In this document: positions 3,016 through 63,243 of the stretch, in pieces
Numbering within the stretch: position 1 is the stretch's first letter
Layout: each line of letters opens with the position of its first letter
Assembly: GCA_027487075.1 (NCBI GenBank)
Contig: JAIYEG010000006.1
Coordinates: 4,468 to 68,467 of the forward strand
Length of the DNA stretch: 64,000 nt
Direction: 5' to 3'
DNA from: a bacterium
GTDB taxonomy: Bacteria > Patescibacteriota > Minisyncoccia > Phycocordibacterales > CALRBL01
Translations under genes and position numbers: made by a program
Notes under the pieces: model-generated
What the model saw: only the letters and a program-made list of their open reading frames with translations
What the model was told of the DNA's origin: nothing
The model's database searches: none

Positions 3016-3574
3016 GTGCTTGCTTGATCATGTCTTCAGTGCCAAGGTCTTTGTCCATTTTTTTCACCGCATCTCGTGCCTCACGTTCATCAAAACCGAG
3101 TGACTTAAGTGCTTCGACAGCAAGTGCTTCTTTGGTGACGTCTTTTCCTGAAGGGGTAGGACCGTAATCGTCTTTGAATTTTCCTTTGAGCTCAAGTACG
3201 ATTTTTTCCGCACTCTTTTTGCCAATCCCTGACACTTTAGTGAGGTATGAAATGTCTTCACTTACAATAGCTTCACGGAGCGTGTGTGCTGATGCGAGGC
3301 CGAGGATGCCAAGAGCAGACTTTGGTCCAATCCCTGAGACGGTGATGAGAAGTTCGAACATGTCGAGAGTTTCTTGGTTTTTGAAGCCGTAGAGGTCGAG
3401 AGCAGTTTCGCGTACGGCAAGATAGGTGAAAAGGGAAACCTGTTGACCAATATTGCCCGCGAGAGCTTCGAGACACTCGCCTCCAACATAGACTTTATAG
3501 CCAACACCCGCTACGTCGATAATAGCTGCCTTGAGGTCCAGATGGATAAGTGTCCCAGAAATGCGTGAAATCAT
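2993..3574 (-). CDS. ruvA: Holliday junction branch-migration protein RuvA
   Basis: MISRISGTL...VGGVGYKV...TVSGIGPKSALGIL...VSGIGKKSAEKIVLELKGK; start trimmed to the ATG at 3574. Confidence 0.9.
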   Translation of the reverse strand: MISRISGTLIHLDLKAAIIDVAGVGYKVYVGGECLEALAGNIGQQVSLFTYLAVRETALDLYGFKNQETLDMFELLITVSGIGPKSALGILGLASAHTLREAIVSEDISYLTKVSGIGKKSAEKIVLELKGKFKDDYGPTPSGKDVTKEALAVEALKSLGFDEREARDAVKKMDKDLGTEDMIKQALKEIGRS

Positions 3575-3614
3575 TGTGGTCACATTATAGCGTAAAAGAC
3601 CAAGTAGTAAGAGG

Positions 3615-3729
3615 GCTTCTCTGAGATGTTCTTCCGTAAGGAGACTTGCGAGGCTCGACGGAGTGAGCACGAGGAATTTTCTAGTAAGAAAATATCCGTG
3701 CTCCTGGAGGAAGAATATATCAGAGAAGC
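3615..3729. repeat. structured intergenic repeat element, copy A (conserved core inside a locus-specific inverted repeat)
   Basis: Arms GCTTCTCTGAGATGTTCTTCC / GGAAGAATATATCAGAGAAGC flank the core CGACGGAGTGAGCACGAGGAATTTTCTAGTAAGAAAATATCCGTGCTCCTGG. Core is near-identical to the copy at 37468-37535 (opposite strand) and homologous to copies at 11266, 29229, 31342 and 45130. Confidence 0.8.
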
Positions 3730-3775
3730 TGGTTAATACTTTGCATTCTTATGCTTTATGTGGTAATTTCTCCCT

Positions 3776-4039
3776 ATGCCAATTACATCATCAGCTAAAA
3801 AGGCGCTCCGATCTTCAAAGCGCAAGCGAATCGTCAATCTCGCTGCCAAGGAAAAGTATGCAAAGGCAGTGAAGACGGTGAAAAAGCTTGTCGTAGCAAA
3901 GACCAAGGAGGGAACAAAAGAAGCGCTTTCTCTTGCCTATAAGGCACTCGATAAAGCAGCTAAGAAGGGGGTGATCAAGAAGAACACCGCTTCTCGCCGA
4001 AAGGCTCGCCTTGCTAAAGCAATCAAGAAGCTTAGCTAA
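3776..4039 (+). CDS. rpsT: 30S ribosomal protein S20
   Basis: Lys/Ala-rich 87 aa protein MPITSSAKKALRSSKRKR...ARLAKAIKKLS. Confidence 0.9.
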   Translation: MPITSSAKKALRSSKRKRIVNLAAKEKYAKAVKTVKKLVVAKTKEGTKEALSLAYKALDKAAKKGVIKKNTASRRKARLAKAIKKLS

Positions 4040-4719: not shown

Positions 4720-4809
4720 CCATCGCTCCTTACAGGAGCAGTACCCCGATTGGATACTCTGCTTCGGCTCGAATACTCGCCTCGCATAGTATGCTCAATT
4801 TATTCGCTG

Positions 4810-4881
4810 TGCTCTCGGCAGGAATCGAACCTGCATTACAACTTCCGCAAAGTTGCGTCCTATCCATTGAACGACGAAAGC
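4810..4881 (-). tRNA. tRNA-Arg (anticodon GCG)
   Basis: GCTTTCGTCGTTCAATGGATAGGACGCAACTTTGCGGAAGTTGTAATGCAGGTTCGATTCCTGCCGAGAGCA; perfect 5-bp anticodon stem, loop TTGCGGA, no encoded CCA. Confidence 0.75.
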
Positions 4882-7815: not shown

Positions 7816-8211
7816 ATGAAATATCTCGGTATTGATTTTGGTGACAAACACGTAGGAGTTGCTGTCTCAAACGATGGTGGCACAATGGCGTTCCCGCTCA
7901 CGACGCTTGATGGTGGGACAGGGCTTATAGATGAGGTCTCAAAGCTCATCGAAGAAAAGGGGGTTCAAGCGGTGGTCATCGGGGAATCAAAAGATTTTCA
8001 GGGACAGGACAATAAAATTATGAAGAAAGCTCGCGTATTTGCGGAGGAGCTAGCTCAGAAAACTTCAAAAAAGGTGCCTGTCCCCATTTACTTTGAACCC
8101 GAGTTTATGACTTCAGTAGAGGCGCGACTCATTCAGGGAGGGGGAGAAAAGACGCATGCCTCGGCAGCGGCACTCATCCTCAAGAGTTATCTCGACAGAA
8201 AAAACAATTAA
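7816..8211 (+). CDS. ruvX: Holliday junction resolvase-like protein RuvX/YqgF
   Basis: MKYLGIDFGDKHVGVAVSN... diagnostic YqgF N-terminus. Confidence 0.85.
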   Translation: MKYLGIDFGDKHVGVAVSNDGGTMAFPLTTLDGGTGLIDEVSKLIEEKGVQAVVIGESKDFQGQDNKIMKKARVFAEELAQKTSKKVPVPIYFEPEFMTSVEARLIQGGGEKTHASAAALILKSYLDRKNN

Positions 8212-8556: not shown

Positions 8557-8714
8557 GCAACAGATGGATTGTCAGCATGAAAGAGAAAGAAATACCTAAA
8601 GCAATGTGTTGCGGAGTGCTGGGCACGAGCATAGCAAATTTTTACCAGAAAATTATGCGCGCATTGCGTAGGTATTTTCTTTTTCTCTTTCATGCTGTGA
8701 TATAATTTCTTTCG

Positions 8715-9785
8715 ATGAACGATTACAACTTTATCGCTCGCCACTTTCCCGCACCAGACGTACTCGATGTGCCGTATGTTGGTATCGACGTGTCTCCATC
8801 CGCTGTGCGTCTCATGGAAATCATCGATGTGCCATCACGCAAAGTTGGTGTGTATGCCGAAGCTCCGCTCTCGACACCGTTTCTCATCACAGAAGGCGAC
8901 AATAAAGAAGTAAAAGATATTCTCAAAAAGTGGAAAAAAGATTTTAAACTCCAATACATCAAAGCTTCTATTCCTGAAGAAAAAGCGTACTTGTTTGATA
9001 CCGAAATAGAATTTGGAGATGAAGAAAAAATGCGCACTGCTATCGAATTTTCTCTCGAAGAGCACGTTCCTCTCAAGGGTTCTGAGGTGATTTTCGATTA
9101 TCGTCTTGTGGGGGAGAGTCCTAAAAAAGGGTTTATTAATGTTGCGGTGACGGTGCTTCCTAGTGAAGTAGTGTATCGCTACGCTGATCTTTTTGAGGAG
9201 TGCGAGCTTACCCCGATCTCATTTCTTATCGAAGCCCAAGCGGTGTCACGCGCGCTCATTAGGCGAGGAGATAAAGGAACGTATCTTATTGTGAACATTC
9301 GTCACACTCGCACAGGCGTGTTTATTGTAAGTAATGGGGCGGTGCAGTTTACCTCGACACTTCAACTTGGTTCATATGATTTTACGAAGAGTATTATGGC
9401 TAAGTTGGGAGTAAACGATGAAGATGCAAAACAAAAGAAACATACGCTTGGTTTTGTAAAGTCGAAGGAAAATGATGTGCTTGATGCAATGCTTCCAACC
9501 GCACTCGAATTTAAAAAAGAAATTGAGAAGGTGTATATCTACTGGAGTAAGCACAAAAGTGCAACAGGTGAGGCAACACCGATTCAAAAAGTAATTGTGT
9601 CAGGAAGTGAGGCAATTACCCCAGGATTTAAAGAGTTTGCGAGTCAAATGCTGAAAGTGGAAGTTGAGATAGCGAATGTATGGAACAATCTCGCTTCGTT
9701 TGATGAATATGTCCCACCGCTTCCCTTAGCACAAGCACTTAATTTTGGAGCTGCTATCGGGCTCGCCCTTCCAGAAAAAGAATAA
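8715..9785 (+). CDS. pilM: type IV pilus assembly ATPase-fold protein PilM-like
   Basis: Actin-like fold, VGIDVSPSAVRLMEI N-terminus; followed by PilN- and PilO-like genes. Confidence 0.65.
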   Translation: MNDYNFIARHFPAPDVLDVPYVGIDVSPSAVRLMEIIDVPSRKVGVYAEAPLSTPFLITEGDNKEVKDILKKWKKDFKLQYIKASIPEEKAYLFDTEIEFGDEEKMRTAIEFSLEEHVPLKGSEVIFDYRLVGESPKKGFINVAVTVLPSEVVYRYADLFEECELTPISFLIEAQAVSRALIRRGDKGTYLIVNIRHTRTGVFIVSNGAVQFTSTLQLGSYDFTKSIMAKLGVNDEDAKQKKHTLGFVKSKENDVLDAMLPTALEFKKEIEKVYIYWSKHKSATGEATPIQKVIVSGSEAITPGFKEFASQMLKVEVEIANVWNNLASFDEYVPPLPLAQALNFGAAIGLALPEKE

Positions 9786-11149: not shown

Positions 11150-11221
11150 GCCCCTGTAGTTCAATGGATAGAACTGCGGACTTCTAAGCCGTCAATCTAG
11201 GTTCGATTCCTAGCGGGGGCA
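11150..11221 (+). tRNA. tRNA-Arg (anticodon TCT)
   Basis: GCCCCTGTAGTTCAATGGATAGAACTGCGGACTTCTAAGCCGTCAATCTAGGTTCGATTCCTAGCGGGGGCA; loop CTTCTAA. Confidence 0.8.
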
Positions 11222-11373
11222 CAAGCCAAGAAATCCAAACCGCTTTGGATTTCGCTGGACTTGTGCCGGCCGGAGCGCGACGGCGCGAGGTGGGGTCGCG
11301 GACATTTTTAGTAAAAAATGATCCGTGACCACAAGTTAAATCTTCAAACAGGGTACTGATCCTGTAAGGATCG
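11222..11373. repeat. composite structured repeat, copy F: tRNA-3' hairpin, GCGCGACGGCGCGAG core, A/T hairpin and UGUAA-loop hairpin
   Basis: GGCACAAGCC...GGACTTGTGCC hairpin; GGAGCGCGACGGCGCGAGG; ACATTTTTAGTAAAAAATGA; CAAACAGGGTACTGATCCTGTAAGGATCG. Confidence 0.75.
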
Positions 11374-11426
11374 ATATATTGATAAAAAACATCTTTTACG
11401 CTACAGTGAGTCGGTCAGTCTAAGAA

Positions 11427-14587: not shown

Positions 14588-14671
14588 GCGCAGGTGTTGA
14601 AACTGGTAGACAAGCACCCTTGAGGTGGGTGTGCCTTAACCGGCGTGGAGGTTCAAGTCCTCTCCTGCGCA
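14588..14671 (+). tRNA. tRNA-Leu (anticodon GAG)
   Basis: GCGCAGGTGTTGAAACTGGTAGACAAGCACCCTTGAGGTGGGTGTGCCTTAACCGGCGTGGAGGTTCAAGTCCTCTCCTGCGCA; long variable arm. Confidence 0.85.
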
Positions 14672-14715
14672 CAAACAAAAGAAATCCCGCAAGGGATTTT
14701 TTTGTTTGTGCGCAG
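14665..14715 (+). terminator. nested terminator: ~17-bp outer stem reusing the tRNA-Leu 3' acceptor strand, with inner AAATCCC-GCAA-GGGATTT hairpin and U-tract
   Basis: CTGCGCACAAACAAAAG ... TTTTGTTTGTGCGCAG are exact reverse complements. Confidence 0.7.
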
Positions 14716-14793
14716 AGCAAGCACCAAGGTGCTTGCGTGAGAGGACTTGAAGCCTGTTTGAGCATGTTGTACGAGCGAAGCGAAGTAGAACAT

Positions 14794-14822
14794 CCAAACA
14801 GGGTACAGGTCCTGTAAGGACC
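14794..14822 (+). repeat. tRNA-downstream UGUAA-loop hairpin motif
   Basis: CCAAACAGGGTACAGGTCCTGTAAGGACC; same motif at 11346-11373 and 4725-4753 (minus strand). Confidence 0.7.
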
Positions 14823-29188: not shown

Positions 29189-29202
29189 ATAGAGGAATAA
29201 AA

Positions 29203-29307
29203 CTTACAAAACCTTTTCGGAAGGAGGCTCGCAGAGCGCGACGGCGCGAGCGTGAAAAATTTTCTAGCAAGAAAATATCTGTACTCCTGAAGAAAAGGTT
29301 TTGTGAA
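29203..29307. repeat. structured intergenic repeat element, copy B
   Basis: Arms CTTACAAAACCTTTTCGGAAGG / CCTGAAGAAAAGGTTTTGTGAA; core GCAGAGCGCGACGGCGCGAGCGTGAAAAATTTTCTAGCAAGAAAATATCTGTACTCC. Confidence 0.8.
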
Positions 29308-29521
29308 TTTTATTTGCTATACTCATTTCATGAACACCGAAGAACGCCTTCTCGCGCTGGAACAAAAGATTGATGCAATGTCAGTAGTGGTAAAAAAGCT
29401 GTACCGTGTTTTTTTGATTACCGTGATTATAAGCGTAGTTGCGTTTGTGCTTCCTTTGATCGGGCTCCTGTTTGCGATTCCATCATTTTTATCTACCTAT
29501 GCAAGTATTTTGGGACAGTAG
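29303..29521 (+). CDS. small hypothetical membrane protein
   Basis: 72 aa with one TM helix; its 5' end lies in repeat copy B, so likely starts at the internal Met (MNTEERL). Confidence 0.4.
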   Translation: MNFICYTHFMNTEERLLALEQKIDAMSVVVKKLYRVFLITVIISVVAFVLPLIGLLFAIPSFLSTYASILGQ

Positions 29522-31310: not shown

Positions 31311-31423
31311 CTAGCACAGAATTCTTACTCGGAGAAAACATTGCGCAAGCGCGACGGCGCGAGCATAAGAATTTTCTACCAAGAAAATATCTGTGTTTTC
31401 GAAGAGTAGAGATTTTGTGCTAG
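31311..31423. repeat. structured intergenic repeat element, copy C (exemplar), filling the whole argS-ileS gap
   Basis: Arms CTAGCACAGAATTCTTACTCGGAGAAAACAT / CTGTGTTTTCGAAGAGTAGAGATTTTGTGCTAG; core TTGCGCAAGCGCGACGGCGCGAGCATAAGAATTTTCTACCAAGAAAATATC. Confidence 0.85.
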
Positions 31424-35475: not shown

Positions 35476-37422
35476 ATGAATGATCTTGAGCGACAACGTG
35501 AAGAAGAGGAGGAGCGAAAAAGTCGTATCGACTCTGCGCGCGACAATTTGTATCGCCCAGGAGGTCCAAGTGTGATTCATCGTGAATCAGATCCGCGATT
35601 GCCGCAGGAAGAAGAGGCGCTCCCATCTCAAACATTCGCTCCACGTGTACCGCGCACCTTCGATGAACAAAAGTTTGCCTCAAAAGCAACTACGATCTTC
35701 CGTCGCATGTTCTTGGGAGCTCTGGTGTTTTTCGTAATTGCAATTGGCGTAGCAGGGTACATGTATTACTACGGCAACACCACTATCTCCGCAAAAAATA
35801 TTGAAGTCGATATTGTTGCACCACCGTCTGTGCCTTCAAGTGACACCTTTTCGTATGATGTGAGTATTCAAAATGGCAACAATGGTGATCTTCTTAACAC
35901 CGCACTCGTCATTGATTACCCAGAGGGCACGCGTAGCGTCGAAGATAATACGAAGCCGTTGGTGAGTGAGCGTATTGAGCTCGGTACCTTGTCGAAGGGG
36001 GCAGTAGTACGCCGCACATTGTCTGCGCGATTCTTTGGAGAAGAGAATGCGCAAAAAGATGTGCAGGTCCGAATCGAATATCAGGTGCCTGGATCTAATG
36101 GGCAGTTTAGTAAAGATGCCGGATTTAGTGTGTTCTTGAGACTCGCCCCTGTCGTGCTCACCATCGATGCGCTCAAAGAAATCAATAACAACCAAGAGGT
36201 GACATTGGTTGCTAAAGTGGTGTCAAACTCAAACAATACCTTAAGCAATCTCGCTCTCAATGTGACATATCCCTTCGGTTTTACGTACAAGAGCTCGAAT
36301 CTCGAAGTTGATGGACGAAAAGGAGAATTTCCACTCGGTGAACTCAAGCCAAATGAGACAAAGACGGTTGAGATTGTGGGAGATATCAGTGGGCAAAGCA
36401 ATGAAGATAAAGTATTTAAATTTAACGTAGGTACGGCAAGTAATGCAGATTCAACACGCGTGAGCACCTCACTTGCAATGCATGTGCATGACATGGTGAT
36501 TCGTGGAGATTTCTTGGCAACGTCGATCACCTTCGCAGATCGTAAGGATTATGTGATTGTTGGTGATAAGCTTCGAGGGACTATACAATGGCAGAATACG
36601 CTCAATGTGCCAGTCAACGATGCTAAGTTCACGCTTAAGATTGACGGGGACTTGATTGATAAAGATAATATCCGCGCAACTCAGGGATATTACGACTCAA
36701 ATCGCTCACTTATTGAATGGAATAAGAATATTGATCCTCGACTTGAAGAAATAAAGCCTGGTGAAAAGGGAGAATTCGCATTCGCTGTTGATCTTAAAGG
36801 TTTCGACGAAGCTCTTGCGGAACGGATTAGTAATCCAAAAATTAATTTGAAGTTCGATGTGCATGCGCGACGTATCAATGAGAATGATGTGACAGAAGAC
36901 ATTGAATCATCATTTGAGAGATCAGTGCCCATGGTGTCAGATGTGGTACTTACAGGCAAGACACTTTATAGCAGTGGTCCCTTGAAAAACAGTGGCCCTA
37001 TACCTCCAAAGGTTGAAACCAAGACCACGTATACCGTAGCACTCACCCTTACCAACACGGTTAATGAAGTATCAAATGGAGAGCTCACCCTTACGCTTCC
37101 CAACTATGTAACCTATGAAGGCGAGGTGACGCCCTCAAGTGAACGTATTTTATGGAATAGTAGCACCAAACAGCTTCGTTGGAGTGTGGGGTCATTGCCC
37201 GTGCGCACAGGATTTGGCACCGCGCCACGCACACTCAACTTTAAAGTGAGTGTATTGCCAAGTCGAAGTCAAATTGGAAAGACGTTGAATCTGGTGAATA
37301 ATGTTAGCTTTGTAGGACGTGATAATTTCGCAAATGCAGAGGTGAAGGCATCAGGAAATATTGTGACAACTTCGGTGCAAGATCCCGGAGCTGGATTTGG
37401 CACAGGGCAAGTGGTACAGTAA
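35476..37422 (+). CDS. large membrane-anchored surface protein with repeated beta-rich (Ig/CARDB-like) domains
   Basis: Charged N-terminus, one TM helix, then ~540 aa of Thr/Ser/Asn/Val-rich repeats. Confidence 0.55.
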   Translation: MNDLERQREEEEERKSRIDSARDNLYRPGGPSVIHRESDPRLPQEEEALPSQTFAPRVPRTFDEQKFASKATTIFRRMFLGALVFFVIAIGVAGYMYYYGNTTISAKNIEVDIVAPPSVPSSDTFSYDVSIQNGNNGDLLNTALVIDYPEGTRSVEDNTKPLVSERIELGTLSKGAVVRRTLSARFFGEENAQKDVQVRIEYQVPGSNGQFSKDAGFSVFLRLAPVVLTIDALKEINNNQEVTLVAKVVSNSNNTLSNLALNVTYPFGFTYKSSNLEVDGRKGEFPLGELKPNETKTVEIVGDISGQSNEDKVFKFNVGTASNADSTRVSTSLAMHVHDMVIRGDFLATSITFADRKDYVIVGDKLRGTIQWQNTLNVPVNDAKFTLKIDGDLIDKDNIRATQGYYDSNRSLIEWNKNIDPRLEEIKPGEKGEFAFAVDLKGFDEALAERISNPKINLKFDVHARRINENDVTEDIESSFERSVPMVSDVVLTGKTLYSSGPLKNSGPIPPKVETKTTYTVALTLTNTVNEVSNGELTLTLPNYVTYEGEVTPSSERILWNSSTKQLRWSVGSLPVRTGFGTAPRTLNFKVSVLPSRSQIGKTLNLVNNVSFVGRDNFANAEVKASGNIVTTSVQDPGAGFGTGQVVQ

Positions 37423-37608
37423 AGGGGACAGGCACCTTTTTTCGTGAAGCAGAGCACCACATAATCGTCAGTGTCCTTACAGGAGCACGGATATTTTCTT
37501 ACTAGAAAATTCCTCGTGCTCGCTCCGTCGAAGCCCCACAAGGCTCCTTTCAGGACACCGCCGATTATGCGTTTCTCTGTCTTTAAAAAGGTGCCTGCCC
37601 CCTTAATT
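37422..37608. repeat. structured intergenic repeat element, copy E (core on minus strand)
   Basis: Arms AAGGGGACAGGCACCTTTTTT / AAAAAGGTGCCTGCCCCCTT; reverse-complement core CGACGGAGCGAGCACGAGGAATTTTCTAGTAAGAAAATATCCGTGCTCCTGTAAGGAC is near-identical to copy A. Confidence 0.85.
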
Positions 37609-37612
37609 TTAT

Positions 37613-44380: not shown

Positions 44381-44848
44381 ATGTACCTTAACAAAGCACT
44401 CATCATAGGAAACCTCACTCGAGACCCAGAGATCAAAGCTCTCCCGTCAGGAATGCAGGTGACCAGCTTTTCTGTTGCTACTAATCGTGTCTGGAAAGAC
44501 AAGTCAGGAGCACGTCAGGAAAGCTCTGATTACCACAACATCGTGGTCTTTGGACGTCAGGCTGAGACGTCAGCTCAATATCTTAAGAAGGGTGCTTCAG
44601 TGCTCATTGAAGGCCGTATCCAGACTCGTTCATGGGACGGACAGGATGGCAAAAAGCAGTACCGCACCGAAATCGTAGCCGACAACGTACAATTCGGTCC
44701 TCGAGCAGGGGGTATGAGTGGAGGCGCTGTGTCCGAGGCCTCTGCTTCGGCTTCTGCAGTTCCTGGTGCACGCAAGGCTCCTATGCAAGAGGATGAGGGT
44801 ATAGCATACCCCGATGAGGAAATTAACCCCGAAGACATCCCATTTTAG
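44381..44848 (+). CDS. ssb: single-stranded DNA-binding protein
   Basis: LNKALIIGNLTRDPE...IVADNVQFG, C-terminal DIPF tail. Confidence 0.9.
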   Translation: MYLNKALIIGNLTRDPEIKALPSGMQVTSFSVATNRVWKDKSGARQESSDYHNIVVFGRQAETSAQYLKKGASVLIEGRIQTRSWDGQDGKKQYRTEIVADNVQFGPRAGGMSGGAVSEASASASAVPGARKAPMQEDEGIAYPDEEINPEDIPF

Positions 44849-44905
44849 GTCTCACATTTGCAATTTTACTGAAATACGATATAAATACCCCTACACACAA
44901 ATTAT

Positions 44906-45106
44906 ATGAAAAAATGCTACTTCTCACAGAATAATATCAAGCATGTAGATTACAAGGATACGGACTTGCTCAAAAAGTTCCTTAATCCTCATGCTCGTCT
45001 TCTTTCAAGCAAGAAGACTGGTGTGAATGCTAAGCACCAGCGCAAGCTTGCTAACGCTGTAAAGCGCGCTCGCTTCATGGCTCTCATTCCGTATATTAGT
45101 CGATAA
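44906..45106 (+). CDS. rpsR: 30S ribosomal protein S18
   Basis: VDYKDTDLLKKFLNPHARLLSSKKTGVNAKHQRKLANAVKRARFMALIPY. Confidence 0.9.
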   Translation: MKKCYFSQNNIKHVDYKDTDLLKKFLNPHARLLSSKKTGVNAKHQRKLANAVKRARFMALIPYISR

Positions 45107-45220
45107 ACTAAACAAAATACCCCGAAAGAAACATTGCGCAGCCTTGCGGCGAGCATAGGAATTTTTCAGAAGAAAAATATCCGTGTTTCTGAAGGGGTAT
45201 TTTGTTTATTTATCGCTGAC
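45099..45220. repeat. structured intergenic repeat element, copy D, spanning the convergent rpsR-efp gap
   Basis: Arms GTCGATAAACTAAACAAAATACCCC / GGGGTATTTTGTTTATTTATCG; core CATTGCGCAGCCTTGCGGCGAGCATAGGAATTTTTCAGAAGAAAAATATCCGTGTTTC; left arm overlaps the rpsR stop. Confidence 0.8.
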
Positions 45221-45222
45221 GT

Positions 45223-45786
45223 TTAGTTTACGCGTTCTACGTATTCGCCAGTTTCGGTATTGATACGCACTATGTCACCTTCTTTGATAAACATTGGAGT
45301 GGTGACTGTTGCACCAGTTTCGAGGGTGATGAGCTTGTTACCACCTTTTGCGGTATCTCCGCGTACGGCGTCAGGAGCCTCAGTAACCTTGAGTTCAACC
45401 TTGATAGGGAGCTTCACACCGAAAATTTTATCCTCGAAGAGAAGGGCGTCAACGATTGAGTTAGTCTTGATGAACTTGATAGCCACACCAAGCACTGACT
45501 CGTCGAGCTTGAAGCGATTTGAAGGATCTTTTTCGTCACAGAACCAGTACTCACCTTTGTTGAGATAGAGATACTTTACTTTTTTGGTGGTGATTTCGGC
45601 TTCTTCAGCCTTATCTGATACATGGAAAGAGTGTTCGACGATGCGGCCCGAGATGAGATTGCGAAGCTTGGTAGCATTTACCGGCTTTCGCTGTTGCTTG
45701 CGGAATACGTGTGATGCAAGTACTTCATAAGGCTCGTTTTCGAAGATAATATATTTTCGTAGGGTAATTTCATTGTATTCAAGCAT
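45223..45786 (-). CDS. efp: elongation factor P
   Basis: 187 aa, KPGKGxA-equivalent loop RKQQRKPVNA, three OB-like domains. Confidence 0.85.
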   Translation of the reverse strand: MLEYNEITLRKYIIFENEPYEVLASHVFRKQQRKPVNATKLRNLISGRIVEHSFHVSDKAEEAEITTKKVKYLYLNKGEYWFCDEKDPSNRFKLDESVLGVAIKFIKTNSIVDALLFEDKIFGVKLPIKVELKVTEAPDAVRGDTAKGGNKLITLETGATVTTPMFIKEGDIVRINTETGEYVERVN

Positions 45787-45817
45787 AGTAAGGTGATACT
45801 ATCGCATAATTAACGAA

Positions 45818-46372
45818 ATGAAAAGATATCTCTTACTAGTGCCATTCCTCGCCGTTCAAGGACCGCTCACCACGGTCTATGCTGCGTTTAAGGCTTCTCC
45901 TGCGGGTGGGGTAAAGTATGGGCTACTGACACTCTTTATCCTTGCTGTGCTTGTAGATCTGCTTACTGACGTTGGAGCGTTTCTTATAGGAAAGTACGGT
46001 AAAGAGCGTATTGTGGGACGTTATCCAAAGCGTTTCTCGATTTCCCCCGAGCGTTTCCGTGTTCTTGAGGAGTATTTTAAGGTTGAGGGTACCAAGACAC
46101 TTGCTCTTGCGAAGGTGAGTCATGGTTTGGGATGGCCGGTGATGATTGTGGCGGGAAGTGCAGGGGTGACGTATGCGAGGTTTGTTACCATTAATGTGAT
46201 CACAAGTATGGTGAAGTCAGCTGCACTTATGTGGCTTGGGTACTATTATGGCCGTCACTACAAACAAATTGTTCACGCTCTTTCAGGTATCGCACTCATT
46301 TTCACAAGTTTGCTCGTGATTGTGGTCGCGTATTTTATGTTGAGTCGACAGCGAAGAAAGAAGAGGGGGTAG
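45818..46372 (+). CDS. DedA/SNARE-associated (VTT-domain) family membrane protein
   Basis: Multiple TM helices; central RIVGRYPKRF...FFKVEGTKTLALAKVSHGLGWPVMIVAGSAG core. Confidence 0.55.
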   Translation: MKRYLLLVPFLAVQGPLTTVYAAFKASPAGGVKYGLLTLFILAVLVDLLTDVGAFLIGKYGKERIVGRYPKRFSISPERFRVLEEYFKVEGTKTLALAKVSHGLGWPVMIVAGSAGVTYARFVTINVITSMVKSAALMWLGYYYGRHYKQIVHALSGIALIFTSLLVIVVAYFMLSRQRRKKRG

Positions 46373-53242: not shown

Positions 53243-53315
53243 TTCTCTAGCGTAAGCTTTAGAAGGTAGATTCAACAAAAACACCCCGAAAGGGGTGTTT
53301 TTGTTTGCCTAATTT

Positions 53316-59514: not shown

Positions 59515-60377
59515 CACTTCTACATCGCAAATATGTCACTCACCTCAAAACCCAAGCGCCTCGAATAACGCCCCATTGTTGAGTGTTATTCAAGACCGCT
59601 CGGAAGAGCGGTTTTTCTTTAAAACGATAGTTTTAAAGAAGATATAATCGCAAGCGAGGGGTCATGTTACGATGTCGATTTTTGACAAATCCATCCCGCC
59701 CCGACACTTTTGTTCAGAAGCCGCAAGGCCTATGAACAACTGGAGGTCTTTTCAGTTGGAGGCGGAAAGGTAATAGAAAGTAAATGTAAGTAATTGTGGT
59801 CTTTAAATTTCCTAATAGGAAATTAAGAGCATATGGTGGATGCCTTGACTTAAAGTGACGATGAAGGACGCTGCGTAGCTGCGATATGCTTCGGGGAGGT
59901 GCCAAGCAACCTTTGATCCGGAGATCTCCGAATGGGGAAACCCTACCGCTTCGGCGGTAATCCACGCGCTAGACGTGTGGAGGTGTTACCTGGGGAAGTA
60001 AAACATTTCAGTACCCAGAGGAATAGAAAAGAATGTCACATTGTGACGATATTTCGTTAGTAGCGGCGAGCGAAAACGAAAGAGCCCAAACCGAACTCCT
60101 CTATTGAAGGCGCTTCGTAGACTCAGCGCGCAAGTGCTGTGTCCGCGAGTTCCTTCGATAGGGTAGTTCGGGGTTGTAAGGTAGTGATCGTAATTTATTA
60201 CAGAGAGTTACAAATTATATTGTTAGCAGAATGAGCTGGAAAGCTCGGCCCAAGCAGGTGATAGCCCTTTACGCGAAAACAATATAACTCTCATCGCTAT
60301 TCTTGAGTACCTCGAGACACGAATGGCTCGGGGGAATCCAGCGGAACTAACCGCTAAGGCTAAATACACTTTAAGAT

Positions 60378-60420
<43 letters not shown>

Positions 60421-61835
60421 GGAGAGGGGAGTGAAATAGAACTGAAACCATATGTTTACAAGGAGTCGAAGAGGGTATTTATATCCTCGACGGCGTGCCT
60501 ATTGAAGAATGAGCCAACGAGTTGTTGCATGCGGCCCGGCTAAGTCCTAAGGGACGAAGTCATAGGGAAACCGAGTATTAATAGTGCGTTAGTCGTATGC
60601 ATCAGACCCGAAGCCAAGTGAGCTTGCCTTGCGCAGGGTGAAGTTCGCCGAAAGGCGGATGGAGGCCCGAACCGTTTTGCCGTTCAACACATTCGGATGA
60701 CGTGAGGTAAGAAGTGAAAAGCTAATCGAACTTGGTAATAGCTGGTTCTCTCCGAAATAGCTTTTGGGCTAGCGTCGGATGTTCCTTTTGGGGGTAGAGC
60801 ACTGGAAGGTCTCGACAGGGAGAAATCTCGCGAGACCTATCAAACTCCGAATACCAAAAGTTAATAGTCCGGCAGTTAGACCGTGGGGGCTAAGCTCCAC
60901 TGGTCAAAAGGGAAACAGCCCTTGATCTCAAGTTAAGGTCCCAAAATCTACGTTAAGTACACTTAAGGTGGTAGAATTTCTCTGACAATGAGGAGGTTGG
61001 CTTAGAAGCAGCCATCCTTTAAAGATAGCGTAACAGCTCACTCATCCAGAGATTCCGCGCCGCAAATGATCGGGGTTAAACGTAGTACCGAAGCTGAGGG
61101 CTTTCCGTGTGTTCGCACATGGGGAGCGGTAGGAGAGTGTTCCATTCGCGATGAAGGCAAAGGGGTGACCCATGCTGGAGCGCTTGGAAGTAAGAATGTT
61201 GGCACAAGTAACCACAATGCGGGTGAAATCCCCGCACGTCGAAAGATCCAGGTTTCCTTCGCTACGACAATCGGCGAAGGGTTAGTCGGCCCTAAGGGGA
61301 TGGCGAAAGCCGCACCCGATGGACACATGGTTAATATTCCATGACCGTTATATATTGCGATGGGAGGACGGAGAGTAGTATGTGTTGCGTATTATTGGAT
61401 TTACGTTCGTGTTGTAAGGATGAGTTCTAGGCAAATCCGGAACTCGCTAATCCAAGCAAAGCGAAAATGTCCGCCGAAAGACGGATAAATTATGCAAAGC
61501 ACTCTTCCAAGAAAAATCTCTAAGCTTCAAATATATAATGACCGTACCGCAAACCGACACAGGTGATCAGGGCGAGTAGCCCAAGACGAACGAGTGAGAA
61601 GTCCCCAAGGAACTCGGCAAAAAAGCAGCCGTAACTTCGGAATAAGGCTTGCCCCATTTCAGCAATGAAAGGGGGCCGCAGCTAAAGTATCTCTGGCAAC
61701 TGTTTACCAAAAACACAGCTCCCTGCGAACTCGTAAGAGGATGTATAGGGGGTGACACCTGACCAATGCCCGAAGGTCAAACGATGGCGGTGCGACACTA
61801 TTTATTTAGTGGCAAGCTGACCGTTGTAAGCCCGG

Positions 61836-61886
<51 letters not shown>

Positions 61887-62440
61887 TGGTAAGTTCAGAC
61901 GCGCACGAATGGTGTAATGACTGGAGAACTGTCTCGGGGACCTGCTCGGTGAAAATACAGTAGCGGTGAAGATGCCGCTTACCTGCAGTTAGACGAAAAG
62001 ACCCCAGAAGCTTTACTGCAACTTGGTATTGAATATACATTTCTGCTGCGTAGCATAGTGGTGAGACTTTGAAGTATCGATTTCGGTTGGTATGGAGTCG
62101 TCAGTGAAATAGCCATCTGTATTTGTGTATATTCTAACCTCAACGGCAAAAACGATGAGAGACAGTATCTGGCGGGCAGTTTTAGTGGGGCGCTATCCTC
62201 CCAAAAAGTAACGGAGGAGTTTATTAAGGTCAGCTAGGCGCGAATGGAAACCGTGCCGATAGTGTAATGGCACAAGCTGGCTTGACTGTGAGACGTATTT
62301 GTCAAACAGGCGCGAAAGCGGAACATAGTGAACCGACCATAGGCATTAGACGCCGTGGAAGATTATCAGACAAAAGCTACTCTGGGGATAACAGGCTGGT
62401 TGTATCTAAGAGTCCAAATCGACGATACAGTTCGGCACCT

Positions 62441-63243
62441 TAACACATCGGGGTGCCTAGGAAAGTAATTTCCTACAAAAAATCTTGGCTTATAACGGTG
62501 GACTCCATGTATAATTAATACATGGACAATACCGTGGGAAGTTTAACCAAATTGCAAAGATCAGTGATCATCGGAACCCTTTTAGGTGATGGATATGTGA
62601 GAATTGTTCCAAGAAGAGTACATGCTTTTCTTGAAATAAATCATTCAATCACTCAAAAGGAATACGTTGACTGGAAATATGAAATGTTAAAATCGGTATG
62701 CAAGTCTGGACCAATCCAAAGAAAAGGGAATGGAACAAGAATTGCATATAGATTTACGACAAGACAAAGCAAAGAATTAACTTCGCTTTATCAAGCTTTT
62801 TATCAAAATGGTAAAAAGATTATTCCGGAAATATTGGAAATTGATCCAATTTCACTCGCAGTGTGGTTCATGGATGATGGAAGTAGATGCAGAGAAAGAG
62901 ATGTCTATCTGAATACTCAACAATTTGATGTTGAAGATCAGAAAAAACTCATCTCTTTTCTGCAAAAATGGGGAATCGAGAGTACATTGAATAAAGATAA
63001 AATCTATTGGAGAATTCGAATCAAGAAATCTTCAATACATACCTTTTTCAAAATAATTTCTCCCCATGTTATTCCATCTATGAATTACAAAATTGGTTAT
63101 AACCCTGTAGAGACTTGTATTGAAGAGCAATTTCTTCATACAGAGCTGCTTCCAAGGGAAGCGGTTAACACGCCAACTCCTTTCTGATCAGAAAGGATGA
63201 AGATATAGTCCGATCCTTCTAGTAATAGAAGCAAAATACGACA
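62441..63243 (+). mobile_element. group I-like intron in 23S rRNA (site homologous to E. coli ~2449) carrying a homing-endonuclease ORF
   Basis: Exon junction ...TTCGGCACCT | intron | CGATGTCGGCTC...; intron ends in G. Confidence 0.75.
62522..63187 (+). CDS. double-motif LAGLIDADG homing endonuclease (intron-encoded)
   Basis: GTLLGDGYV and [19 protein letters not shown] motifs; 221 aa ORF wholly within the rRNA intron. Confidence 0.8.

Follow-up and report, generated by a model that had tools for sequence, protein, structure and literature searches.

What is the element that fills the gap between the convergent genes rpsR and efp, and does it end the transcripts of both? In the window, by which we mean the whole 64-kb stretch of DNA analysed here, rpsR (ribosomal protein S18, PF01084) occupies 44906–45106 on the + strand and efp (elongation factor P) 45223–45786 on the − strand, and these identities are backed by Pfam matches (S18, EF-P, SSB and S6) in an identical Logan contig (run SRR30952591). 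A sequence-only reading of this DNA had described, in the gap between the two genes, one copy (copy D) of a repeat whose left arm includes the rpsR stop codon, and had proposed that this copy is the sole terminator candidate for both genes, acting without a U-tract as a bidirectional structural terminator or as an RNA stabiliser. From sequence comparison, we give a probability of about one half to the reading that copy D is a dispersing, structure-defined repeat lodged in the bidirectional terminator of rpsR and efp, where it would still end and stabilise both transcripts.

The hairpin between rpsR and efp

The rpsR/efp gap measures 116 nt and is entirely occupied by copy D. The 5΄ arm, GTCGATAAACTAAACAAAATACCCC (45099–45123), does hold the rpsR TAA at 45104–45106, and the 3΄ arm, GGGGTATTTTGTTTATTTATCGCTGAC, covers 45194–45220, the efp stop codon (45223–45225, minus strand) beginning 2 nt further on. 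In an inverted-repeat search the arms measure 28 nt and are 86% complementary. Read on the + strand, the 5΄ arm (45096–45123) consists of the final rpsR codons with the stop, an A-rich run and a CCCC clamp, and the 3΄ arm of a GGGG clamp, a U-rich run and an inverted copy of the rpsR 3΄ end (TTTATCGCTGAC). Folded as RNA, the + strand of the 135-nt region reaches −54.9 kcal/mol (z = −9.45, a value equalled by 0 of 200 shuffles) and the − strand −49.9 kcal/mol (z = −8.3, with none of 200 shuffles as good); with DNA parameters copy D reaches −34.9 kcal/mol (z = −8.9). A chance or locally evolved palindrome, unrelated to other sequences, would have nothing in its favour beyond the A+T-rich composition, and it is already refuted by the z of −9.45 and by a score of 68 bits (E about 1e-15) against a model made from the copies of other genomes.

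A consensus scan of positions 44700–45900 found no canonical short-loop terminator, so copy D, which sits at the 3΄ end of transcription units between the two stop codons, is indeed the sole terminator candidate for rpsR and efp. The claim that it has no U-tract was wrong: directly past the GGGG clamp the + strand reads UAUUUUGUUUAUUUAU, with 12 U in 16 positions, and the − strand, past its own GGGG, reads UAUUUUGUUUAGUUUAU, with 12 U in 17. Both runs are base-paired to A-rich sequence of the other arm, as happens in every terminator of the bidirectional intrinsic type, and were overlooked for that reason. With such terminators copy D shares the convergent-gene site, the CCCC/GGGG clamp and the A- and U-rich runs on both strands, but their loop has 3–8 nt, whereas here a clamp of no more than CCCC/GGGG encloses, in place of a loop, a conserved three-way junction, a structured insert of about 70 nt that puts copy D outside the canonical terminator definition. 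The family differs from them too, in that most of its members lack a U-tract and many lie away from gene 3΄ ends. In mycobacteria, 'I-shaped' hairpin terminators without a U-tract have been proposed; there a strong hairpin with no U-run would end transcription, as was supposed for copy D, which differs from them in having U-rich runs and in belonging to a family that is not placed like terminators.

All parts of the insert are numbered on the + strand. It opens with GAA (45124–45126), which together with the GAA at 45191–45193 makes up a symmetric 3x3 GNA/GNA internal loop and forms its 5΄ side; loops of this kind recur among the family copies. The 5΄ strand of helix P2, AGAAACAU (45127–45134), pairs with 45183–45190, and the P2 3΄ strand, GUGUUUCU, together with the closing GAA of the internal loop, covers 45183–45193 according to the fold. 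Between them, fold and alignment place the P3 hairpin at 45135–45155, with a UGC...GCA base and a GCC/GGC tip, a shortened form of the family hairpin xGC-GA-NNNN-GnCG-NNNN-GA-GCx', and the P4 hairpin, GGAAUUUUUC-AGAA-GAAAAAU(A)UCC, at 45158–45182. Relative to the family consensus of P4, GGAAUUUUCU-AGCA-AGAAAAU(A)UCC, the changes are compensatory (UUUUUC/GAAAAA against UUUUCU/AGAAAA, a double compensatory variant), and copy D departs somewhat from the rest of the family. By its core it clusters with a 'type 2' subfamily (..GCGCAG..GAGCA.AG..UUCAGNAGAA..) and also with copy C, whose core is nearest to it within the window.

A family of capped hairpins in Patescibacteria

Five window copies were aligned, and the pattern AATTTTCTNNNNAGAAAATATCYGT was searched in one genome per GTDB species. 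It matches at least 118 genome loci, nearly all of them in metagenome-assembled genomes of Patescibacteria (CPR); among the matches listed, the labels are Yonath-, Taylor-, Nomura-, Vogel-, Wildermuth-, Zambryskii- and Moraniibacteria, Paceibacterota and 'Saccharibacteria', and single genomes often give several matches. A covariance model, R1, was built from 100 copies. In one run it matched 15 of 15 Patescibacteria pattern loci, and 0 of 5 non-Patescibacteria and 0 of 5 viral loci that had been found by the pattern alone; a phage origin was rejected, the five viral matches not being elements. One short contig labelled Flavobacterium sp. (CAZSZH010000134.1, 1.7 kb, locus L065) carries a partial core, a 3΄ arm and a flank identical to those of the Patescibacteria locus L085, and is therefore probably mis-binned.

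Within the window R1 finds seven copies, which bears out the earlier description of the rpsR/efp hairpin as one copy of a repeat. On the + strand are copy A (3616–3721, 91 bits), between the divergent ruvA and rpsT promoters; copy B (29199–29304, 92 bits), after dut; copy C (31311–31416, 76 bits), between argS and ileS; copy D itself (model match 45104–45206); copy F (8579–8681, 52 bits), between a gene with a tRNA-binding domain and pilM; and copy G (11238–11345, 41 bits), which belongs to a variant subfamily and lies 15 nt after a tRNA-Arg gene. Copy E (37465–37571, 83 bits) is on the − strand, antisense to both neighbours. The arms of the seven copies are mutually unrelated, the stem not being conserved between copies, and related arms are seen only within some genomes (ELA554, Yonathbacteria).

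Some further repeats of the window touch on these copies. The variant subfamily (..GGAGCGCGACGGCGCGAGG..GGUCGC-P4-GUGACC), which has short stems, comprises 11238–11345 of the window and the loci L014, L093, L096, L106 and L109, and in the window and in L014 it directly follows a tRNA gene. Copy E is nested in a second, 27-nt inverted repeat (37415–37441 and 37585–37611, 85% complementary), a hairpin inside a larger hairpin, and a third copy of this outer motif (AAAGGTGCCTGTCCCC) lies at 8067–8088. A second repeat family, whose core ACAGGGTACnGnTCCTGTAAGGA is itself a small hairpin, is found at 4722–4771 (−), 11333–11375 (+) and 14776–14820 (+), and adjoins tRNA-Arg (4809–4881), tRNA-Arg (11150–11222) together with copy G, and tRNA-Leu (14588–14672), respectively.

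Scanned with Rfam 15 in gathering mode, no copy gives a match, and scans by E-value return only hairpin-shaped chance matches such as microRNA precursors and Virus-PTE (RF02521), the cap-independent translation enhancer of plant viruses. The latter, also a T-shaped three-way junction, is the best sub-threshold match, but at 28 bits against a gathering score of 80, on the antisense strand and with unrelated biology, the likeness is one of shape only. The same is true of parvovirus terminal repeats (T-shaped, flip/flop), which likewise carry two small hairpins on a long stem and a cap that lies either way round, as it does between the window and locus L143; those repeats are ends of linear replicons, whereas the capped hairpins are internal to chromosomes and have no sequence relation to them. 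The TIGR-Tas guide arrays of CPR bacteria were rejected as relatives, being arrays beside Tas genes and of a different architecture. No description was met in the searched full-text literature, including a search with the sequence itself. The capped hairpin is a class absent from Rfam and from the literature searched, and it spans many Patescibacteria lineages.

In every copy a long, copy-specific stem (median 18 paired positions, maximum 43) ends in a three-way junction that is conserved and some 60 nt long. Here P2 continues the stem, P3 is rich in G+C (xGC, tandem G·A, 4 bp, a GnCG loop, 4 bp, tandem G·A, GCx') and P4 in A+U (3 + 7 bp, with one A bulged out and AGCA as its loop). The first sample was biased to an invariant P4 by the search pattern, and 69 copies were then gathered with the model. 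In these, 94.1% of the cells hold standard pairs, against 61.4% in shuffles and 46–55% with slid partners, all 35 modelled pairs change on both sides and the covariation score is 0.773 against 0.195, figures that carry the caveat of an alignment fitted to the model. On an independent MAFFT alignment, RNAalifold scores 28 of the 35 pairs as compensatory. Among the unpaired positions conserved at 90% or more are the G·A pairs, the two loops (GnCG and AGCA), one A of the junction, GU, and the UAU at the bulge; insertions of variable length occur in P3 and between P3 and P4 (L021, L069 and L075). A pseudoknot of the P3 loop with CCGU was rejected, as it shows no covariation. Two elements of one MAG (CAZWJU01, loci L029 and L056) have identical stems and differing P3 hairpins (GUGUGGCGACAC and GCGCGACGGCGCG); an allelic swap of cores was rejected for them, these being two different loci that have in common a repeat, some 300 nt long, within which the element lies.

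The two strands are not equivalent. On the sense strand, as defined by the cap, the stems hold 118 G·U, 15 A·C and 74 G·A or A·G pairs, whereas the reverse complements folded alike hold 59 G·U, 48 A·C and 6 G·A, and the mean folding energy is −64.3 kcal/mol for sense against −59.2 kcal/mol for antisense. The excess of G·U and G·A on the sense strand argues that the element is kept in single-stranded, folded form, be it as RNA or as DNA; covariation on one strand is what is found in structured RNAs generally, and a folded DNA strand fits the same data.

The main rival of the dispersing repeat starts from these observations. Unpaired cap nucleotides conserved across lineages, covariation in every helix, strand-specific G·U and tandem G·A typical of folded RNA, insertions of variable length as in structured RNAs, and arms of a median of 18 bp and up to 43 bp, enough for a double-strand-specific RNase, would all suit a small RNA that serves the host and is encoded by a multi-copy gene family. 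The cap (about 60–80 nt) would be the RNA, the stems would be RNase III-type processing stems as at rRNAs, and copy D would be one gene that overlaps the rpsR/efp boundary by chance. Conservation of cap nucleotides together with compensatory change at apparent orthologues is indeed what one would sooner expect of an RNA with a function for the host than of a selfish repeat. We nevertheless regard such a gene family as rather improbable, on account of the placement of the copies that is described below. As to known RNA motifs, a hammerhead was rejected because its core motifs CUGAUGA and GAAA are unlike the junction strands ACU / CGA / GUG (by eye), and a kink-turn because the required asymmetric bulge is absent (by eye); other ribozyme classes are excluded only through the negative Rfam scans.

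Placement of the copies in their genomes

The surroundings of the copies were counted from crude ORF calls and the counts are approximate: the gene end that a copy faces is a 3΄ end in 95 cases and a 5΄ end in 89, the copy is antisense to its neighbour in 114 cases and sense in 70, and 14 contexts are divergent and 17 convergent. A T-run past the end of the arms, scored as 5 or more T in 8 nt, was present in just 17 of the 103 copies. No neighbour family recurs: when the 184 flanking ORFs are clustered by similarity, no cluster exceeds four members. A cis-regulatory leader or riboswitch is not indicated, there being no coherent set of neighbours, and copies being found upstream as well as downstream of genes and in either orientation.

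Could the whole family be a dedicated terminator? A factor-assisted structural terminator or insulator of Patescibacteria, with a cap that nucleates folding or recruits a factor and stems that stop polymerase both ways, would account for the six of seven window copies that come after the 3΄ end of a gene or tRNA, for the position of most copies just upstream of the promoter of the next gene, and for the replacement of a canonical terminator at the efp/rpsR site. Of the 36 gaps in the window, 7 hold an element, about 10 a canonical terminator and none both, where about 1.9 would be expected by chance to hold both, a difference that is suggestive only and not significant. We consider this device unlikely, somewhat more so than the functional RNA, given that across the family 5΄ and 3΄ ends are faced about equally often and that divergent contexts are nearly as many as convergent ones, and given that 83% of the copies have no U-tract beyond the arms. 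In the genome ELA554 copies lie a few bases downstream of canonical terminators, and copy A, between ruvA and rpsT, is upstream of both promoter-like boxes and therefore cannot terminate either gene. Moreover, the preferred strand is more often antisense, so the cap would usually be outside the terminated transcript. The proposal of a bidirectional terminator or RNA stabiliser stands as plausible for copy D itself, the only structure in its gap, with terminator-like arms and a plain terminator at the same site in relatives; it does not hold for the conserved middle, which is not specific to termination in a family with this placement.

The promoter-like boxes deserve a remark of their own. TATAAT-like boxes at 3574–3600 (−), 3741–3776 (+), 8698–8715 (+) and 29318–29330 (+) lie 6–9 nt before the starts of ruvA, rpsT, pilM and a small ORF, with no intervening Shine-Dalgarno sequence, and boxes so near the starts suggest leaderless mRNAs. 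A promoter inside the cap that would drive a partner copy was also looked for and rejected, no −35/−10 pair being present on either strand (by eye).

Placement also weighs against the small host-functional RNA. There is no promoter-like signal at a fixed place upstream of the copies, and several of them follow canonical terminators or lie between divergent promoters, where sense transcription is unlikely; the sense orientation is, if anything, disfavoured by the counts given above. Apparently decayed copies exist, and copy number is very unequal among relatives, as the comparison of EF-P relatives shows below.

With regard to strand, the sense strand of the element is the C-rich strand of the 8-kb surroundings in 67 of 96 pattern loci (p = 1.3e-4). 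This orientation, the independence of placement from transcription units, the good fold obtained with DNA parameters too, and arms apparently made by inverted duplication, a process at the level of replication, would fit an element that acts as folded single-stranded DNA and for which transcription does not matter: a hairpin recognised by a single-strand-specific transposase or recombinase (REP/RAYT- or IS200/IS605-like), or else a site linked to replication. DNA hairpins also tolerate G·T and tandem G·A. However, no Y1/HUH transposase or recombinase is present in the window or among the neighbouring ORFs, the skew is confounded with gene orientation and is reversed in the window, where six of seven copies are on the G-rich strand, and elements of the REP type conserve the stem, which is here the variable part. 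Of the readings that start from a real family, we find this one the least likely.

The dispersing repeat, which we prefer, has its closest parallels in the REP/BIME/REPIN, ERIC and Correia repeats, the Rickettsia palindromic elements, the mitochondrial double-hairpin elements and MITE-like elements, all of them multicopy, intergenic and hairpin-forming. These repeats are also alike in presence or absence among relatives, in frequent inverted pairs and in their likely side effects on termination and mRNA stability. They differ in that their stem or terminal inverted repeats are conserved, whereas the capped hairpin has a unique stem and a conserved apical cap, and in that they are confined to a genus or species while the capped hairpin extends over many Patescibacteria lineages; no transposase or target duplication was found for it. 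What speaks for mobility is the dispersal of copies (7 in 64 kb) and their presence or absence at the orthologous efp/rpsR site.

Against a dispersing repeat we count that no mobilising gene was found in the window or beside copies, that no target-site duplication was seen, and that the copies keep to a strict rule of arrangement. No transposase or reverse transcriptase occurs among the 65 ORFs of the window, nor any mobilising gene among the 184 ORFs that flank copies. Neither a target-site duplication nor a conserved flank motif was seen at the copies, whose flanks show only an A at −1 (58%) and a G at +1 (40%), because of the tandem G·A closing pairs; the GNA/GNA loops were considered as a target-site duplication and rejected, their halves differing in four of five window copies, as a structural motif. 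Likewise rejected was a composite transposon, since between the members of the three pairs of copies 2.6–2.9 kb apart lie unrelated housekeeping genes or a stretch without ORFs. As for the rule of arrangement, whenever copies on opposite strands are 400 nt or less apart their 5΄ ends face each other, in 11 of 11 pairs (10 of them independent; loci L090, L012, L022, L030, L060, L081, L069, L092, L078, L152 and L176). These pairs usually combine a type-1 and a type-2 core on similar stems, and occur in convergent, tandem and divergent contexts alike.

Elsewhere in the window, an ORF at 62522–63184 (+) matches the LAGLIDADG_2 homing endonucleases (E = 3.6e-40); it begins 25 nt past the end of a 23S rRNA match (59813–62497) that covers all 2925 model positions in only 2685 nt.

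Turnover of the efp/rpsR site and the origin of the arms

The site of copy D was compared among 80 metagenomic loci whose EF-P is 63–87% identical to that of the window. These relatives give only 17 model matches in 400 kb, against 7 per 64 kb in the window. Among genomes with 83–87% identical EF-P the efp/rpsR gap exists in five different states; among them, it is short in L125 (EF-P 83%), has long arms around an apparent decayed copy in L124 (84%), has long arms, an apparent decayed copy and a plain terminator in L126/L127 (84%), and in L123 (86%) holds a type-1 copy in efp-sense orientation on unrelated arms of about 50 bp. In other relatives the gap is a textbook bidirectional terminator (L128 and L129, EF-P 76–77%, and L139, 74%), which in L128 reads AAAACAAAAACCUCCC-AACU-GGGAGGUUUUUGUUUU, or it holds two copies (L152 and L176, 69–72%). 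In L143 (70%) the arms are homologous to those of copy D (ACAAAAUAC[C/U]CC ... GG[G/A]GUAUUUUGU) and the cap has the opposite orientation. The site therefore turns over quickly, and the cap fits the same stem either way.

The arms of copy D (AAACAAAAUACCCC / GGGGUAUUUUGUUU) resemble the plain terminator of these relatives, with the cap in the position of the loop. They also resemble the canonical bidirectional terminators that the window has at 53280–53299 (AACACCCCGAAAGGGGUGUU) and 14680–14701, with which they share the layout of A-tract, CCCC/GGGG and U-tract.

Beyond the terminator-like part, the arms follow the rpsR gene. In L143 the stem reaches 12 nt into the rpsR coding sequence, and on the efp side the arm repeats ...ACGTCACAAATTAAAC, the last rpsR codons with the stop, exactly and in inverted form; in the window, the efp-side arm (reverse complement ACGTCAGCGATAAATAAAC...) mirrors the rpsR end of the window itself (AGTCGATAAACTAAAC...). 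In the element-free relative L125 the end of rpsR, C-terminal codons and stop, is conserved, and the non-coding arm is therefore the derived one. That in each genome this arm matches the genome's own rpsR end points to templated inverted copying of the flank, or else to strong selection for pairing. Templated copying would be the correction or extension of a near-palindrome by strand switching. Of 104 hairpins across the family, 13 have a stem that runs into a flanking ORF at its 3΄ end.

We propose that the family is a non-autonomous dispersing repeat selected as a folded single strand in one orientation, which at copy D would be the rpsR-sense one, and that a putative recognising factor reads the cap in this folded form. 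Copies would appear, flip, decay and vanish at an intergenic site while the cap stays conserved. At rpsR/efp, the cap may occupy the place of the loop of an ancestral bidirectional terminator, and the present arms would be the A-tract, G+C clamp and U-tract of that terminator, extended by an inverted copy of the rpsR 3΄ end. Copy D would then be a composite that offers a hairpin and a U-rich run on either strand, and it would most likely still end both transcripts and shield their 3΄ ends.

What does the family stand for beyond this locus? It is conceivable, though we put it well below even odds, that the cap identifies either a new functional RNA, be it a processed small RNA, a protein-binding module or a ribozyme on processing stems of its own making, or a new mobile element that is recognised by its cap and builds its stems by templated inverted duplication of its flanks, with coding sequence among them. 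With 69–100 aligned members and covariation in every modelled pair, the family is ready for an RNA-family model. Because copies take the place of terminators and extend over stop codons and ribosome-binding sites, they bear on the prediction of operons and terminators, and perhaps on assembly, in these genomes. Patescibacteria have very small genomes, and yet about 1% of the DNA in the window consists of seven copies of one structured element. If this is a selfish repeat, it would be of an unusual type, defined by an apical structure and not by its ends, with stems that duplicate the neighbouring sequence together with its stop codons; should some cellular machine read the cap, this would point to an unknown RNA or DNA biology in a large and mostly uncultured branch of the bacteria.
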